Positions 69 through 8,890 of a stretch of 64,000 nucleotides of DNA are shown in pieces. The notes beneath the pieces were generated by a model that was not told the DNA's origin, did not search any database, and worked only from the letters and a program-made list of their open reading frames with translations. The DNA lies in the NCBI GenBank assembly GCA_963753975.1, contig CAVWEH010000002.1, positions 224,001 to 288,000 of the forward strand, given 5' to 3'. Numbering within the stretch: position 1 is the stretch's first letter; every line of letters begins with the position of its first letter. Origin of the DNA: an uncultured delta proteobacterium. GTDB taxonomy: Bacteria > Desulfobacterota > Syntrophia > Syntrophales > Smithellaceae. Both the position numbers and the translations under genes were made by a program.

Positions 69-219
69 GCATGTTGAAAACTTTTGTTTTGGAAGCTGCT
101 CAAAAAGGCTTAGAGGCAAGGCGCGCGAGAAGCGAGCAGCGGAGCGTACTTTAAGCGTACGTGAGCATGTGAGATTCGAAGCGCAACGCAGAATATGAGC
201 CTGTTTCAGCAGTCTGCTA
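69..219. mobile_element. MITE-like non-autonomous element (~150 bp) with imperfect terminal inverted repeats; abuts the stop codon of the livF-like gene
   Basis: CTGCTCAAAAAGGCT (96-110) matches the reverse complement of AGCCTGTTTCAGCAG (198-212) at 13/15 positions. Inner CGTAC/GTACG palindrome, an extra TIR-like GCATGTTGAAAA at 69-80, no ORF. Confidence 0.55.
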
Positions 220-1017
220 AAGCCAGCGTTTACGACGCCTATACGCCTTCACATCCTTATAGGACTTAGCAATGCCGGAAGCCGACATGCCCAAATAAAA
301 TTCTTTAACATCAGGATTCTTAGCCAGATCGGAAGCGATGCCTTCCATCACTATTTTGCCGTTCTCCATAACGTATCCGTAATGAGCTACTTGCAGGGCC
401 ATATTGGCGTTTTGCTCCACCAGGACTATAGTTGTTCCATGCTCTTCATTGATCATCTTTATTATGCGGAATATCTCCTGAACAACCAGTGGCGCAAGCC
501 CCAATGAAGGCTCGTCCAGCATCAAGAGCTGCGGGTGCGCCATTAAAGCTCGGCCGATTACCAGCATCTGCAACTCACCTCCACTGCAATATCCGGCAAG
601 AGATTTTTTTCTCGGTATTAGTGCGGGAAAATATTTATAGACAAGTTCCAAATCTTCCTTATAAGGCTGGCCTGAGCGCGTGGCAGTGCCGACACGTAAA
701 TTCTCTTCGATGGTCAGATATTTAAAAGGCTGACGCCCCTCTAAGACCTGAATTATACCCTGTCGCGTGATGTATTCGGGCGCCTGATTGTGGATGTTTA
801 TACCGTTGTAGATAATCGACCCATCCGTAACCTTGCCGTTTTCGGGCTTAAGCAAACCCGAGATAGCTTTGAGCGTAGTTGTTTTCCCCGCACCGTTACT
901 GCCCAATAATGAAACGATATGCCCCTTTTCAACAGATAAAGAAACACCTTTTAATACCTGGATAACATCCGAATATACAACGGAAATATTATTTAATTGT
1001 AAAATGATCTCGCCCAT
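217..1017 (-). CDS. livF: HAAT/Liv-family ABC transporter ATP-binding protein (LivF-like)
   Basis: Walker A GSNGAGKT, signature CSGGE, Walker B LLMLDEPSLGLAP, LVEQNA motif. Confidence 0.92.
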   Translation of the reverse strand: MGEIILQLNNISVVYSDVIQVLKGVSLSVEKGHIVSLLGSNGAGKTTTLKAISGLLKPENGKVTDGSIIYNGINIHNQAPEYITRQGIIQVLEGRQPFKYLTIEENLRVGTATRSGQPYKEDLELVYKYFPALIPRKKSLAGYCSGGELQMLVIGRALMAHPQLLMLDEPSLGLAPLVVQEIFRIIKMINEEHGTTIVLVEQNANMALQVAHYGYVMENGKIVMEGIASDLAKNPDVKEFYLGMSASGIAKSYKDVKAYRRRKRWL

Positions 1018-1103: not shown

Positions 1104-2174
1104 CTAATATGAAAAAGGCCACAGCCTAAAGCTGGAACGAAGAATACGCCATAATTCGGCCAGCCCTCGCGGCTCCAGCAATATAAATAAAACAATAGCC
1201 AGTCCAAAAGTAAATTCCCGCAGCGGCGCCATATTCAAACCCAGGCCCGTGACGAAACTGATATTCATCAAAAGCCCGGTGAGAAATCGCAAAAGTTCAT
1301 TGAGCAAAGTAATAAAAGTAGCGCCAAAAATAGCTCCGGGAATATTTCCCAATCCGCCGATTATGACCATGGCGATAAATTCTATGGAAAGCCCCAAATT
1401 AAATGGTTCCGTAGTTATGCTGATCATATAATAAGCCCAAAGCGCTCCGGCAAAACCGGCATAAAAAGAGCTGATCGCAAAAGACAACAATTTATATTTA
1501 AAAATGGGAATACCCATACCTTCTGCCGCACGGTCATTATCGCGAATCGCGATGAAAGCCCGCCCGAATTTAGAGCGCATGATGTTTACAGCAAACCACG
1601 TCATGAGAACTAAGCTCACAAAAATCAAAAAGAAAAATGCTTTATCTCCGGTAATTGACCAATGAATAATTTCCGGCGCGGGCAAGGTAATGCCCATTGT
1701 TCCTTTGGTCAAGCTATCCCAATGAATCAAAACATATTCAATGATAAACTGTCCGGCCAGGGTAGCAATGGTCAAATAAAGCCCCTTTAAACGTCCCGAA
1801 GGAATGCCGAATATCATACCGACAAGAGCAGTGATAATACCTGCCGCCGGTATGGATAAATAAAACCCCCAGCCTAATCTAGTGGCCAAAATAGCTGCGG
1901 CATAAGCTCCCACTCCGAAAAAAGCTCCGTGACCCAAAGATATTTGCCCGGTATAACCGATAAGGATGTTGAGTCCTATAGCCGCGATAGCCGCAATCCC
2001 GATCATATTTAAAATATACAGCATGTAAGTGCTGACAACAAAAGGCGCGACGGCAAAAAATAAAATCAAAAATAATCCCAGGCAAATCCTGCCGAAATAT
2101 GTTTCAAATATTTTTAATTCTTCAGCATAATTTTCACGAAAATTACCGCAAGGATGAAATGAAAAATTCCTCAT
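1104..2174 (-). CDS. livM: Liv-family ABC transporter permease (LivM-like)
   Basis: GYTGQISLGHGAFFGVGAY and GRAFIAIRDND motifs; multiple TM helices. Confidence 0.92.
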   Translation of the reverse strand: MRNFSFHPCGNFRENYAEELKIFETYFGRICLGLFLILFFAVAPFVVSTYMLYILNMIGIAAIAAIGLNILIGYTGQISLGHGAFFGVGAYAAAILATRLGWGFYLSIPAAGIITALVGMIFGIPSGRLKGLYLTIATLAGQFIIEYVLIHWDSLTKGTMGITLPAPEIIHWSITGDKAFFFLIFVSLVLMTWFAVNIMRSKFGRAFIAIRDNDRAAEGMGIPIFKYKLLSFAISSFYAGFAGALWAYYMISITTEPFNLGLSIEFIAMVIIGGLGNIPGAIFGATFITLLNELLRFLTGLLMNISFVTGLGLNMAPLREFTFGLAIVLFILLEPRGLAELWRILRSSFRLWPFSY

Positions 2175-3053
2175 TTATACCCTCTCAATTTCCACCAGAC
2201 CAAACAAGCCATAAGGCTTGACCAGTAGAATAAAAACAAGCACAATGTAAGGCACAACATCAATCAGTGAAGGCGACAGGTAGCCGCCGGTAAATGTTTC
2301 TAAAAGGCCGATTATAATACCGCCAACTATCGCGCCGCCAATGCTGTCGAGCCCGCCTAAAATTACCACGGGAAATACTTTTAAGCCGATTGAGCTCAAA
2401 TCGTGCACATTAACACCGTTGATGATTCCGAGAACTATGCCGCTCATGCTCGCCACGAGCGCGGCGATGGCCCAGGATAGTGCAAAGACCCGCCTCACGT
2501 GAACTCCCAGAGAAAGAGCAGCTTTTTGATTATCGGCTACTGAACGCATATAAATTCCCTGAGCCGATTTTTTGAAAAAAAGCCCGAATAAAACCAGAAA
2601 AACTATGCTGATAATCAGCGTCGCCGTATAAACCGGAGCAATGTATATGCCTCCGAACCTCAGGGCCATCGATTCATTTAAAAATTCGGGATAGGTATGC
2701 AAGTTCCCCCCCCAAACGAGCAGAATAAATCCTTTAAACATCTCCGCCAAACCCACCGTCAGCATAATGACAAAAATCAGTTTTTCTCCGATTAACGGAC
2801 GCAGAAATAATTTCTCGATTATAAAGCCCAGAATAAAGGATCCGACAAGCGTCAAAACAAAAGCAATTAAAACGGGCAATTTAGCCCAGCTAATCAATGC
2901 TAAAAAAAAGAAAGCTCCCAGGGCTAAAAGTTCGCCATGAGCAAAATTCAAAACGCTGGAGGACTTAAAAATCATCACAAAGCCCATCGCCGATATACCA
3001 TAGAGAAGCCCGACGCAAACCCCGTTCACCAGTAATTGCAGAAAAAAATCCAT
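2175..3053 (-). CDS. livH: Liv-family ABC transporter permease (LivH-like)
   Basis: VLNFAHGE, VVILGGLDSIGGA and KPYGLFG motifs. Confidence 0.92.
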   Translation of the reverse strand: MDFFLQLLVNGVCVGLLYGISAMGFVMIFKSSSVLNFAHGELLALGAFFFLALISWAKLPVLIAFVLTLVGSFILGFIIEKLFLRPLIGEKLIFVIMLTVGLAEMFKGFILLVWGGNLHTYPEFLNESMALRFGGIYIAPVYTATLIISIVFLVLFGLFFKKSAQGIYMRSVADNQKAALSLGVHVRRVFALSWAIAALVASMSGIVLGIINGVNVHDLSSIGLKVFPVVILGGLDSIGGAIVGGIIIGLLETFTGGYLSPSLIDVVPYIVLVFILLVKPYGLFGLVEIERV

Positions 3054-5017: not shown

Positions 5018-5815
5018 TTATAATGTACCGGAATCGCCCAGATATGCCCTGATAACTTCGCGATGACCACTGATTTCGTAAGCCGAGCCCTCCACTATTT
5101 TTTCGCCAAAATTTAGTACCATAATACGCTCAGAAATATTCATGACAATTGACATATCATGCTCCACTAAAATCATTGTCAAACCCCATCTCTGATTTAA
5201 TTCCAAAAGAAAGCGAACCATGTCCTCTTTTTCTTCCAGATTCATTCCGGCGAAAGGTTCATCCAATATAAGAAGCCTGGGCTCCAGGGCGAGCGCCCTT
5301 CCCAACTCAACCCTTTTCATCATCCCGTAAGGCAAAGCACCTACTGTTTTTTTCCGAATTGACTGCATCTCCAGAAAATCAATTATTTCTTCCAATACTT
5401 TCCGGTGGCGAATTTCTTCATTTTTTACTGCTGGAGAAAAAAAACAAGAAGAAATAAAGCCGTAATGGCAGTGAATGTGGCGGGCCAGCGTCATATTAGC
5501 CAGCACCGTCATCCCCGGAAAAAGCTCGATATTCTGAAATGTTCTGCCGATACCCACCCCAACAAGTTCGTGCGTGCGTAAATCGGTAATATCCGTGCCG
5601 TTAAATGTTATTCGGCCTTTTTGGGGGCGGTAAAATCCAGTGATGCAGTTGAGCAGACTGGTTTTACCCGCCCCATTCGGGCCGATGATGGCCATCAACT
5701 CGCCGGTGTGAACGTTGAGATCAACATCTTTTACAGCAGTAACGCCCCCAAAACTAAGATGCAAACTTTTAATTTCCAGCTCAGCTTTTTTATTTTCTTC
5801 TCGCCTGCTCGTCAT
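5018..5815 (-). CDS. livG: Liv-family ABC transporter ATP-binding protein (LivG-like)
   Basis: GPNGAGKT, RTFQN, LPYG, LILDEP, LVEHDM and AYLG motifs. Start uncertain (5815 or 5845). Confidence 0.9.
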   Translation of the reverse strand: MTSRREENKKAELEIKSLHLSFGGVTAVKDVDLNVHTGELMAIIGPNGAGKTSLLNCITGFYRPQKGRITFNGTDITDLRTHELVGVGIGRTFQNIELFPGMTVLANMTLARHIHCHYGFISSCFFSPAVKNEEIRHRKVLEEIIDFLEMQSIRKKTVGALPYGMMKRVELGRALALEPRLLILDEPFAGMNLEEKEDMVRFLLELNQRWGLTMILVEHDMSIVMNISERIMVLNFGEKIVEGSAYEISGHREVIRAYLGDSGTL

Positions 5816-5958
5816 TATCGATGGCCGGCCACGGAAAGCTTTCATTATAATCCTTCAATTACTTCGCAAAAAAATCACCTGCGGCGTTTACCTTGCTTAC
5901 GACAAGGTTTTTCTGCATCCATATTGTTTCTTCACAATTAAAAAATATTTGCGGTTAA

Positions 5959-7164
5959 CTATCTCTTGAGCAATTTAATTTTGTCTTTGCCCGGAACATA
6001 AAAATTAGTCAGCGGTATATATGTTCCATCTTCTTTTACTTGGACCATGCGGGCAGTAAATGACGCCCCATGATCATCTTTAGTGTATGTTATATTGGGA
6101 ACCAAACCACCAAAGTTTTCATTCCTAAATGATTCCATGGCGGCATTGATGGTTTCCGGATTTATTTCCTTGCTCTTTTCATAAGCACGGATAAACGCTC
6201 TTTCCATAATCATTCCGATAACAACTCCCTCCCAATAGGAAGCGTCGAATTTATCCACTGTTTTATAACGCTTCCACAATTCCTTTAAAATTCTAATCCC
6301 TGCGGATTTATCCGTTGGCAGTGCTCCGGGAAATTGAATGACAAGCCTATCTCGAATCAACCCGTTGCCCATTTTAAAGAAATCCGGGTCGGTAGATGTC
6401 CATGTTCCTAAAAACAAAGGGCTGTAATTAATGCGGTCGGCGCTTTTGAAGGCGGTTATTATCGCTGAAGGCAGCATTTGCATAAAGATATATTCCGCGC
6501 CTTTTTTCTGCAGGCGGAGCAGTTCGGTGTTCAAATCAACTGTTTTCGGCGGAAATTCCTCGATGGCAACGATATTAATATTTAATTTAGCAGCGTATTC
6601 TTTGCTGGGCTCGTGAATTGAGCGGCCGTAAGCGTTATTGTAAGTGAGAAGGCCGACTTTAGGAGCATCTTTGCCTTTGTGGATTGCTTTAATATATTCC
6701 AACACCGCTTGACAATCCATTTTATAACTGCCGAAAGGCAGATAAATATAATCTACCGGTTTTTCGAGTATTTCCCAACTGGTGGAATAATTGATTGTCG
6801 GTACTTTGTACTTTTGAATTATCGGTTTTGCCGCTAATCCTTCACCGGCACCCCAGGTAGCGATCATATCTACTTTATCCTGCAAAACGAATTTTTGCAC
6901 AGCTGCCTGAGCTTCCGGCACCTTATAAGCCGTATCCACAGTGATCATTTCTATCTTGTCGCCGAATACTCCTCCCTTGACTTCATTTACATAGCGAAAA
7001 TAATCGCGCTGGCCTTTTTCATGGAACTGGCCCCAGGTCGAAGCAGGCCCCGTTAAGTTGATAGCCGCTCCTACTTTGATCGTTTTGGCTTCAGCACCTA
7101 CAAGAACAGCAAACAAAAAAACAGAAATCGTCAATGTGATTAAAATGCCAATCCTCTTTTTCAT
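5959..7164 (-). CDS. ABC transporter substrate-binding protein (LivJ/LivK-like, Peripla_BP_6 type)
   Basis: Start placed at ATG 7164 (SD GGGAGGGG, signal peptide MKKRIGILITL...AEA). IKVGAAINLTGP and VNEVKGGV motifs. Confidence 0.9.
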   Translation of the reverse strand: MKKRIGILITLTISVFLFAVLVGAEAKTIKVGAAINLTGPASTWGQFHEKGQRDYFRYVNEVKGGVFGDKIEMITVDTAYKVPEAQAAVQKFVLQDKVDMIATWGAGEGLAAKPIIQKYKVPTINYSTSWEILEKPVDYIYLPFGSYKMDCQAVLEYIKAIHKGKDAPKVGLLTYNNAYGRSIHEPSKEYAAKLNINIVAIEEFPPKTVDLNTELLRLQKKGAEYIFMQMLPSAIITAFKSADRINYSPLFLGTWTSTDPDFFKMGNGLIRDRLVIQFPGALPTDKSAGIRILKELWKRYKTVDKFDASYWEGVVIGMIMERAFIRAYEKSKEINPETINAAMESFRNENFGGLVPNITYTKDDHGASFTARMVQVKEDGTYIPLTNFYVPGKDKIKLLKR

Positions 7165-7215: not shown

Positions 7216-7254
7216 AAAAAAAAACCGTGGGCCGACGTTTATCTGCCCACGGTT
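7216..7254 (-). terminator. Intrinsic terminator of an attenuator, 52 nt upstream of the substrate-binding gene
   Basis: Perfect 10-bp stem AACCGTGGGC/GCCCACGGTT with a 12-nt loop, ending in a 9-T run on the minus strand. Confidence 0.85.
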
Positions 7255-7274
7255 CATTTTCCTTATATAACCCG

Positions 7275-7367
7275 TCATGATACTGCCAGGCAGACCCTCA
7301 TGTTGGTAAAACTAAAGAAATATATAAAAGCTGCCTTATTAAAACTCGATTTTTCAATCATGCGCAT
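7275..7367 (-). CDS. Phe/Tyr-rich leader peptide MRMIEKSSFNKAAFIYFFSFTNMRVCLAVS (30 aa)
   Basis: Hand translation: AAGGA SD upstream; 5 Phe and 1 Tyr in codons 9-20; the stop lies 20 nt before the terminator and within the antiterminator 5' arm. Confidence 0.7.
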   Translation of the reverse strand: MRMIEKSSFNKAAFIYFFSFTNMRVCLAVS

Positions 7368-7387
7368 TCTTTCCTTTTGTATGGGGC

Positions 7388-7580: not shown

Positions 7581-7609
7581 TTGACATATATGTACCATTT
7601 TCATATAGT
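7581..7609 (+). promoter_or_regulatory. Sigma70 promoter of the pilT-like gene
   Basis: TTGACA-N17-TATAGT, ending 9 nt before the ATG. Confidence 0.65.
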
Positions 7610-7618
7610 TAGCTCACT

Positions 7619-8890
7619 ATGAATCAACGGTTCACAGATTTGATCCTTGCCGCCATCAAACAAAGGCTTTCCGACCTCCACATTACGGGAGGGTTTCCCT
7701 TAATTTTCCGCAGAGACGGCGTCATCCATTTCGATAAAAATATCAAATGGTCGCATACGGAAATAGACACCATGGTCAAAGAAATGCTCAGCGACCGGCA
7801 ACTGCAAACGCTCAGAAAAAGATGGTCTGTTGATTTCGCCCTTTCTTTCAACCATGTGCGTGTCAGAATCAATGCTTTTTATACAACCCGTGGGTTGAGT
7901 CTTGCTATACGACTGCTTCCGGAAACGATTCCTGATTTAACTTCGCTCAACCTGCATCCATCGCTTAGCCAGATTGTGGAACTTCAATCCGGCCTTATCC
8001 TGGTTTGCGGAAGTACAGGCTCAGGCAAGTCGACCACCATTGCCGCCATCATCGAGGAAATTAACCGCACCAGGCCTGCGCACATCATAACAATTGAAGA
8101 TCCTATCGAATACAGGTTTAAACCTAAGAAATCTTTCATTGAACAGCGTGAAGTAGGCATTCACGTGCCGTCCTTCGATCAGGGACTTCTTGATGTATTG
8201 AGAGAAAATCCCGACGTTATTTTCGTCGGCGAATTAAGAGAGCCGGATACAATCAGGCTTACCCTCAACGCCGCGGAGTCCGGACACCTTGTCTTCGCTA
8301 CACTTCACGCTACCGACGCTGAAGATGCGGCTTATCGCATCAACAACTGTGTTACCGGTGAAAACCAGGATGTTATCCGCTACCAGTTTGCCTCGACGCT
8401 TTCTTGGCTTGTTGTTCAACAACTGACTTTTCTCAACAAAGTTGGTTTCAGGGTTCCCATGCTTTCCATACTTCGGACAACACCTTCTGTCCAGAGCAGC
8501 GTTCGCGAAAATAAATTGACCCAATTGGAAAATATCATGTCCACGAGCAAAAACGATGGTATGTTTACGATGAAGCTATATGAAAAAGAATTCATCAGTA
8601 ATCGTTCCTCATTTGTCCATCCTTATAAGAGTTTCGGCATGGGGGCGGATTCTTCCAAGGAAAATGATTATGTTTCTTCGCTTATCGACCCCAATGCCGT
8701 TCAGGATGTAATTTATATGTCCTCGGTAGATGACGCCTATAAAGCCGACGGCGCCGCAAAATTGGCCGGTGATGACGATGAGCAACGTTATGTAATCCTG
8801 GAAGACCATGACATGGATCTGAAAGACCTTCTTGCCCAATACGATGAATCGAAAGAAGAAAAGATAGAGAAAAAGCGCCCGAAAAAATAG
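7619..8890 (+). CDS. pilT: PilT/PilU-family type IV pilus retraction ATPase with an acidic C-terminal extension
   Basis: SDLHI, Walker A GSTGSGKST, Asp box TIEDPIE, Walker B DVIFVGELR and His box GHLVFATLH. Confidence 0.85.
   Translation: MNQRFTDLILAAIKQRLSDLHITGGFPLIFRRDGVIHFDKNIKWSHTEIDTMVKEMLSDRQLQTLRKRWSVDFALSFNHVRVRINAFYTTRGLSLAIRLLPETIPDLTSLNLHPSLSQIVELQSGLILVCGSTGSGKSTTIAAIIEEINRTRPAHIITIEDPIEYRFKPKKSFIEQREVGIHVPSFDQGLLDVLRENPDVIFVGELREPDTIRLTLNAAESGHLVFATLHATDAEDAAYRINNCVTGENQDVIRYQFASTLSWLVVQQLTFLNKVGFRVPMLSILRTTPSVQSSVRENKLTQLENIMSTSKNDGMFTMKLYEKEFISNRSSFVHPYKSFGMGADSSKENDYVSSLIDPNAVQDVIYMSSVDDAYKADGAAKLAGDDDEQRYVILEDHDMDLKDLLAQYDESKEEKIEKKRPKK

Follow-up and report, generated by a model that had tools for sequence, protein, structure and literature searches.

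A predicted phenylalanine leader-peptide attenuator conserved in front of a Liv-type importer and acyl-CoA ligase operon in Syntrophales

The window analysed here, a stretch of 64,000 nucleotides from a Smithellaceae genome (G000), carries on its minus strand a short Phe-rich leader ORF and an intrinsic terminator in front of an operon for a Liv-type ABC importer and a FadD-like acyl-CoA ligase. Sequence comparison and folding models indicate, with a probability of about 0.9, that this element is a real and conserved phenylalanine attenuator of the classical ribosome-dependent type, which would read the supply of charged tRNA-Phe. Phe attenuation is supported because the Phe codons are conserved at the codon level, the leader stop has a fixed position, the three alternative helices are conserved and mutually exclusive, the modelled switch window falls on the Phe codons, and sister leaders carry codons that match their biosynthetic operons. 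When phenylalanine is plentiful, the ribosome would reach the leader stop and cover region 2, so that the 3:4 terminator would form and transcription would end near 7216. When it is short, the ribosome would stall at codons 14-20, regions 2 and 3 would pair ahead of the synthesis of region 4, and transcription would continue into the operon. The mechanism is classical, and its target, an importer and CoA-ligase operon, is unusual.

Leader and switch in the window

The features of the leader and the operon are collected in Table 1. The initial annotation described a Shine-Dalgarno site followed by a 30-codon ORF with five Phe and one Tyr, and both are present on the minus strand (AAGGA at 7376-7372; ORF at 7367-7275). 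The residues are F9, F14, Y16, F17, F18, and F20, with the five Phe inside codons 9-20, and close orthologues align to an in-frame second start, the ATG at 7361. None of 2000 dinucleotide-shuffled versions of the leader has five Phe in 12 codons. Genome-wide, the same Phe count occurs at three of 146 sites with a short ORF plus hairpin, the window leader having the strongest hairpin of the three, in a scan that is not exhaustive, as it missed the trpE leader. Transcription may start near 7380. The motif TTGAC(A/T) lies 33-73 nt ahead of the leader ORF start at 48 of 48 leader loci, and a consensus promoter scan makes no call at 7416-7387. The ORF track was also said to run the binding-protein gene across the terminator, and it does: the 439-aa ORF from 7278 is an artefact, and the true gene start is at 7164, behind GGAGGGG.

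Table 1. Features of the leader, the switch, and the operon behind it (window positions unless a contig is named)
Feature	Position	Strand	Basis or remark
Candidate sigma-70-like promoter	7416-7387	minus	-35 TTGACT 7416-7411, 18-nt spacer, non-canonical -10 TATATG 7392-7387; inferred
Shine-Dalgarno-like site AAGGA	7376-7372	minus	sequence; purine-rich site before start in orthologues too
Leader ORF, 30 codons (28 from ATG at 7361)	7367-7275	minus	ORF reading and orthologue comparison
Region 1 (AGGCAG), just before Phe cluster, partner of region 2	7336-7331	minus	78.5% of cells paired
Control codons F14, Y16, F17, F18, F20	7328-7308	minus	in-frame TTY:TTR and modelled stalls
Region 2, antiterminator 5' strand	7295-7288	minus	pairs with region 3 in 92.5% of cells
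Conserved inner antiterminator helix UCAU:AUGA, overlaps stop codon	7280-7277 : 7257-7254	minus	72-93% paired per pair (4 pairs)
Region 3, common to antiterminator and terminator	7254-7241	minus	folds and alignment
Region 4 and terminator U-tract	7232-7216	minus	94.5% paired, 4 pairs changed on both sides
Liv/HAAT-family substrate-binding protein, 401 aa	5959..7164	minus	weak LivK-type match; closest structures 3lkb, 4n03
LivG-like ATPase	5018..5845	minus	below equivalog cut-off
FadD-like acyl-CoA ligase, 642 aa	3065..4993	minus	best match FadD11, below cut-off
LivH-like permease	2175..3053	minus	profile match below curated cut-off
LivM-like permease	1104..2174	minus	profile match below curated cut-off
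LivF-like ATPase	217..1017	minus	profile match below curated cut-off
PaaK-like ligase, outside window	G000:C2:221994-220741		after 2.2-kb insert beyond livF

The intrinsic terminator hairpin spans 7254-7223 (-20.6 kcal/mol) and is followed by a U-run down to 7216. Its earlier description as a 10-bp stem with U9 counts two U residues twice, and it stands either as 8 bp with U9 (7224-7216) or as 10 bp with U7. A generic terminator scan overlooked the hairpin because the loop limit of the scan is 8 nt. The antiterminator 2:3 and the terminator 3:4 are mutually exclusive, as both use region 3. In the alternative fold (-15.5 kcal/mol), GUCUGCCU at 7295-7288 pairs with GGGCAGAU at 7248-7241. This is the pairing first proposed, and it recurs as 92.5% paired between regions 2 and 3 over the 46-row alignment. 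Region 2, and with it the antiterminator 5' strand, lies downstream of the Phe codons as the initial annotation had it, in a modelled geometry like that of classical attenuators. The second helix put forward, ACGGGUU:AACCGU, folds in the window genome as part of the alternative fold but is not a conserved element (59.8% of cells paired, with 207 of 500 shuffles as high); as a conserved inner helix it is rejected as genome-specific, and the conserved one is UCAU:AUGA at the stop codon.

In the 46-row alignment the terminator is 94.5% paired, and the terminator and the 1:2 helix together show 31 two-sided changes vs 10.8 in shuffles. Covariation in the 2:3 helix is weak and no higher than in shuffles: its variation is mostly one-sided, with one pair changed on both sides and a covariation score matched by 82 of 500 shuffles. 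In Trp sister leaders, two-sided changes in the antiterminator were noted by eye. The 1:2 helix is the earliest hairpin to form in the nascent RNA of the window leader, being the MFE structure of the RNA ending at 7286 (-16.5 kcal/mol), and may act as a pause or as an anti-antiterminator.

Conservation of the leader

An orthologous binding protein (at least 67% identity) is found in 48 of 61 genomes searched, window genome included, and an intact Phe-rich leader accompanies it in 45 of the 47 other genomes. The lack of a conserved Phe-rich ORF in orthologues, named at the outset as an outcome that would speak against attenuation, is therefore not what is seen. Counted by locus, an intact Phe-rich ORF of 21-35 codons is present at 46 of 49 orthologous loci, the window one included; the 49 loci represent 48 genomes, one of them twice, and all counts on 46 omit L043, L048, and L049. 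L043 (genome G050) is the one orthologous operon without a leader, and the PaaK-like gene is absent there too (L043/L070). L048 and L049 have the switch and a frameshifted ORF, the binding-protein gene is broken as well, and these frameshifts are probably assembly errors. The closest named relatives are Smithellaceae and other Syntrophales. Among named Smithellaceae and Syntrophales loci, 71 of 77 match a strict pattern of the switch plus an ORF with at least four Phe, in a set that overlaps the genome set and excludes three of 80 loci for too little upstream DNA. At one locus (L012), the terminator and the binding-protein start codon are separated by an extra ~180 bp, which leaves the leader undisturbed.

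Over the 46 leaders, the 45 nt before region 2 contain, in the leader frame, TTT or TTC 243 times vs TTA or TTG six times. No stops occur in that frame, a count that is circular for the 46 open frames because each ORF was chosen as the most Phe-rich open frame, and the related genomes are not independent. In the other two frames the same 45 nt give TTY:TTR ratios of 108:108 and 120:33, with 10 and 85 stops. Thus the Phe codons are no by-product of U-rich DNA. Each leader has 3-7 Phe in the last 12 codons ahead of region 2.

In 42 of 46 leaders, 21 nt separate the leader stop from region 2, and 44 of the 46 have region 2 in the leader frame. The two frame-shifted leaders (L044 and L047) still stop on region 2 despite their other frame, which argues that position counts and peptide sequence does not. 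TnaC-type arrest-peptide leaders have a conserved C-terminal peptide at the stall site. Such an arrest peptide was considered for the present leader and rejected, as the V-C-L end falls in a different frame in L044 and L047, and the RNA strand that this end encodes accounts for it.

Ribosome position and folding

The stalled ribosome was modelled by blocking the 5' part of the RNA, with an assumed footprint of 10, 13, or 16 nt and equilibrium folding of the rest. For the window leader, the probability of 2:3 pairing is at least 0.9 for A-sites at codons 14-20, 0.03 without a ribosome, and 0 from codon 24 on, and the switch window of the model coincides with the Phe codons. Across all 46 leaders, this probability exceeds 0.8 in 216 of 237 Phe stalls and is below 0.05 in 46 of 46 ribosomes at the stop. 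Without a ribosome, 2:3 outcompetes 1:2 at equilibrium in 33 of the 46 leaders, which departs from the full classical picture, and super-attenuation is thus unsupported by the model. The full-length RNA of the window leader goes to the terminator fold in every case modelled. Since the terminator wins at equilibrium, the switch would have to be kinetic, that is, co-transcriptional.

Sister leaders and a second terminator

The scaffold of the Phe switch is used with other codons in the same genome. A Tyr-rich leader with the same switch precedes genes for a binding protein, livH, livM, livG, livF, and paaK (G000:C4:179682-173049, minus strand). A Trp leader with four Trp precedes trpE (G000:C5:77137-76950, minus), a mixed Tyr/Trp/Phe leader precedes the aroF-pheA operon (G000:C5:181654-181870, plus), and a Val/Ile/Leu leader precedes ilvB (G000:C5:612295-612080, minus). 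In addition, a Leu-rich leader stands before leuA (G000:C4:123331, plus) and an Ile-rich one before a cimA-like gene (G000:C5:409103, minus). These gene names were read from translations, with profile matches for pheA, paaK, and trpE. The biosynthetic sisters serve as internal controls because their leader codons match the pathway.

A covariance model of the Phe switch core has 262 matches in the 61 genomes, of which 21 were picked by hand with a preference for those beside iorA or binding-protein genes. Among these 21, five are Trp leaders, four before a second iorAB and one before a TRAP carrier. Seven are Tyr leaders before a second importer, with paaK present in five and contig ends reached in the other two; six leaders stand before ilvB and one before aroF. 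The remaining two are a Val-rich leader, described below, and in genome G058 a Phe leader (L170:6056-2380, minus) with an SSS symporter and an acyl-CoA ligase behind it. The orthologous binding protein was not found in that genome, which is 89% complete, and the symporter and ligase are possibly a non-orthologous replacement.

Several details of these loci are recorded here. The second iorAB class behind the Trp leaders of L157, L158, L159, and L160 shares 36-38% identity with the G000 proteins. In L157, a separate Trp leader belongs to each of the iorAB and TRAP operons, which face each other, and in L159 the TRAP genes follow iorAB. A Val-rich leader at L176 (G060:C1:830811, minus) precedes a 1172-aa protein that resembles, by eye, a 2-oxoacid:ferredoxin oxidoreductase, possibly for the salvage of branched-chain acids.

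A second hairpin with a U-tract, which uses its 5' strand to pair with strand 4, is present in 12 of 15 order-level leaders (-10.8 to -17.0 kcal/mol) and in 0 of 31 family-level leaders, the window included. The aro, ilv, and trp leaders of G000 likewise have two tandem terminators of different sequence, with strand 4 complementary to the 5' strand of the second hairpin. The two would form a relay: antitermination would release strand 4, which would then disarm the second terminator. At equilibrium, the strand 4:5 pairing wins in some of the two-terminator leaders only.

Relation to known leaders

The candidate attenuator has the features of classical leader-peptide systems in its sequence and in the model: a leader ORF, a codon cluster, a terminator, an exclusive antiterminator, and the stall and stop geometry. 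The enterobacterial pheL-pheA leader, as the cited passages describe it, is a short ORF with an internal Phe run whose translation controls transcription attenuation (PMC3082878). It shares with the present leader the Phe-rich ORF (Rfam RF01859, Phe_leader); its target is biosynthetic, whereas the Syntrophales target is an importer with CoA ligases. The window leader scores 16.8 bits against RF01859 (E 3.1; gathering score 55) and is not of the same RNA family by score. Amino-acid-rich leader ORFs with a terminator are also described, in the passages cited, for Corynebacterium ilvB-II, which has an antiterminator as well (PMC11109978), and for Acholeplasma aroF (uORFC-13-1; PMC8632094). As presented there, both differ from the window leader in belonging to other phyla and in having biosynthetic targets.

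The trpB motif (RF04312), given for Firmicutes and Fusobacteria in the portion cited (PMC11109978), and the so-called ABC-leaders are terminator-bearing and stand before ABC transporters, like the window leader (PMC11109978, PMC2965389). Unlike it, the ABC-leaders as shown in those passages are no leader-peptide systems. RF04312 scores 20 bits on the window leader vs a gathering score of 59, on the terminator only, and 0 of 5 genomes exceed its cut-off. The weak Phe_leader and trpB matches are driven by the terminator and were rejected as family membership. Moreover, the 64-kb window has no Rfam match at the gathering score, and no match to the curated aptamer models of a T-box or metabolite riboswitch was obtained.

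A survey of attenuators across bacteria by Lopatovskaya et al. in 2010 reportedly covers delta-proteobacteria. Targeted searches found no literature on the leader; that survey, the leader tables of PMC4833913, or the supplement of PMC11109978 could already list it. In the passages of PMC2965389, PMC4833913, PMC8632094, and PMC13685792 returned by term searches, the leader is unmentioned. The leader family could be added to Rfam as it stands, and it corrects where the binding-protein gene begins.

Function of the operon and alternative readings

The six-gene order of the operon is identical in 20 of 20 loci fetched, with the FadD-like ligase inside it in all 20. A PaaK-like gene follows in 15 of the 20, and of the five loci without it, four carry the leader. 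The downstream gene scores 192 bits against PaaK (TIGR02155), whose curated cut-off is 646, and is called PaaK-like only. The structure model of the binding protein (pLDDT 96) matches best to 3lkb (26% identity, valine bound), then to a fatty-acid binder, and the Rhodopseudomonas aryl-acid binders rank lower. The gene iorA is present in 56 of 61 genomes and pheA in 58. The distance of iorA from the operon is 10-60 kb, and this proximity is not counted as evidence because housekeeping genes intervene and general synteny explains it. No leader was seen before either iorA of the window genome.

The surroundings of the operon show further features. The insert between livF and the PaaK-like gene has a GC content of 37% vs 43%, and its ORFs are unmatched in the 20 relative loci. 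A ~31-bp inverted repeat, seen by eye at window ~18-48 and G000:C2 ~222110-222140, brackets three ORFs in this insert. On the other side of the leader, a divergent gene at 7619-8890 (plus strand) encodes a PilT/PilU-family ATPase with an acidic C-terminal extension and has its own sigma-70-like site at 7581-7609.

Importers of the Liv type that have CoA ligases embedded in their operons generally carry the label 'branched-chain amino acid' or 'long-chain fatty acid', with no evidence behind it. The Phe-sensing leader would link the present importer to the supply of phenylalanine, and leads to a short list of candidate ligands. In Methanococcus maripaludis and in rumen anaerobes, aromatic amino acids are made from aryl acids by a CoA ligase, indolepyruvate:ferredoxin oxidoreductase (Ior), and a transaminase. 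The same gene set is predicted in Syntrophales, where the genes for uptake and activation appear to be under cognate leader-peptide control. The importer would take up an aryl carboxylic acid, for example phenylacetate, which the ligase would activate to the CoA ester. Ior would then carboxylate the ester to phenylpyruvate, and transamination would give phenylalanine, sparing de novo synthesis.

That the operon serves aryl-acid salvage for phenylalanine synthesis is a separate and weaker conclusion than the attenuator, held at slightly better than even odds. It is suggested because the PaaK-like ligase is present in 15 of 20 loci, because Tyr, Trp, and Phe sister leaders stand at importers or iorAB, and because iorA is so widespread. 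As pheA is kept in nearly all genomes, the route would be a salvage pathway in prototrophs. Against it count the valine in 3lkb, the fatty acid in the next structure, the scores of both ligases far below their cut-offs, the five loci without a PaaK-like gene, the 10-60 kb between iorA and the operon, the absence of a leader at iorA of G000, and the choice of the 21 sister leaders by hand from 262. As an apparent energy-saving route, the operon would allow a specific cross-feeding link in methanogenic communities to be tested. No usable literature was found on the aryl-acid salvage route or on an operon of such a type.

A wider reading, a Syntrophales regulon for aromatic-acid salvage, is tentative and falls somewhat short of even odds. 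Phe, Tyr, and Trp leaders would then be built on one reusable scaffold, each with its own importer and CoA ligase or Ior, and with the relay in many relatives. If this is true, the amino acids are rebuilt from phenylacetate, hydroxyphenylacetate, and indoleacetate released by fermenting neighbours, and leader codons would name the substrates of orphan Liv/ligase operons.

The chief alternative keeps the same attenuator and lets the importer carry phenylalanine or phenylpyruvate, the ligases serving another acid or being passengers. It draws on the Liv/HAAT family of the importer, on the valine in the closest structure, and on the loci that lack the PaaK-like gene. On the other hand, the FadD-like ligase never leaves the operon in the 20 loci, and each of three unrelated carrier types (ABC, SSS, and TRAP) found behind aromatic leaders is accompanied by a CoA ligase or by Ior. 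This alternative is unlikely, while deserving more weight than those that follow.

The initial annotation had the operon induced by limitation of Phe (or Tyr). The Phe part is supported by the conserved codons and the model. The Tyr part does not hold, given that only 28 of 46 control segments contain a Tyr and that there is a separate Tyr leader. A switch that senses both amino acids about equally is improbable. One Tyr lies within the switch window here, and Tyr recurs in 26 of 31 family-level leaders; set against this, there is one Tyr vs about six Phe per leader, any Tyr is found in seven of 15 order-level leaders, and the dedicated Tyr leader governs another operon. In the control segments, Phe makes up 35% of codons vs 4.6% genome-wide, and Tyr 5.5% vs 3.3%. 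Tyr sensing would thus be minor at best.

UTP-sensing attenuation is known from pyrBI, and a U-rich tract could act in this way through RNA polymerase, or through an RNA-binding protein, with the Phe coding incidental. The codon usage of the 46 leaders bears on both sides of this reading, as 200 of the 243 Phe codons are TTT, but where the U-runs are interrupted in frame, the interruption is a C at the third position (43 TTC) and hardly ever an A or a G. Moreover, sister leaders with Trp, Tyr, Leu, Ile, or Val codons keep the scaffold without a U-run, and the downstream genes are not pyrimidine genes, which together make the reading very improbable. A constitutive leaky terminator beside a chance short ORF would agree with the dominance of the terminator in the full-length equilibrium fold, but is hardly credible when the ORF, its frame, the stop position, and the antiterminator are conserved across the order.
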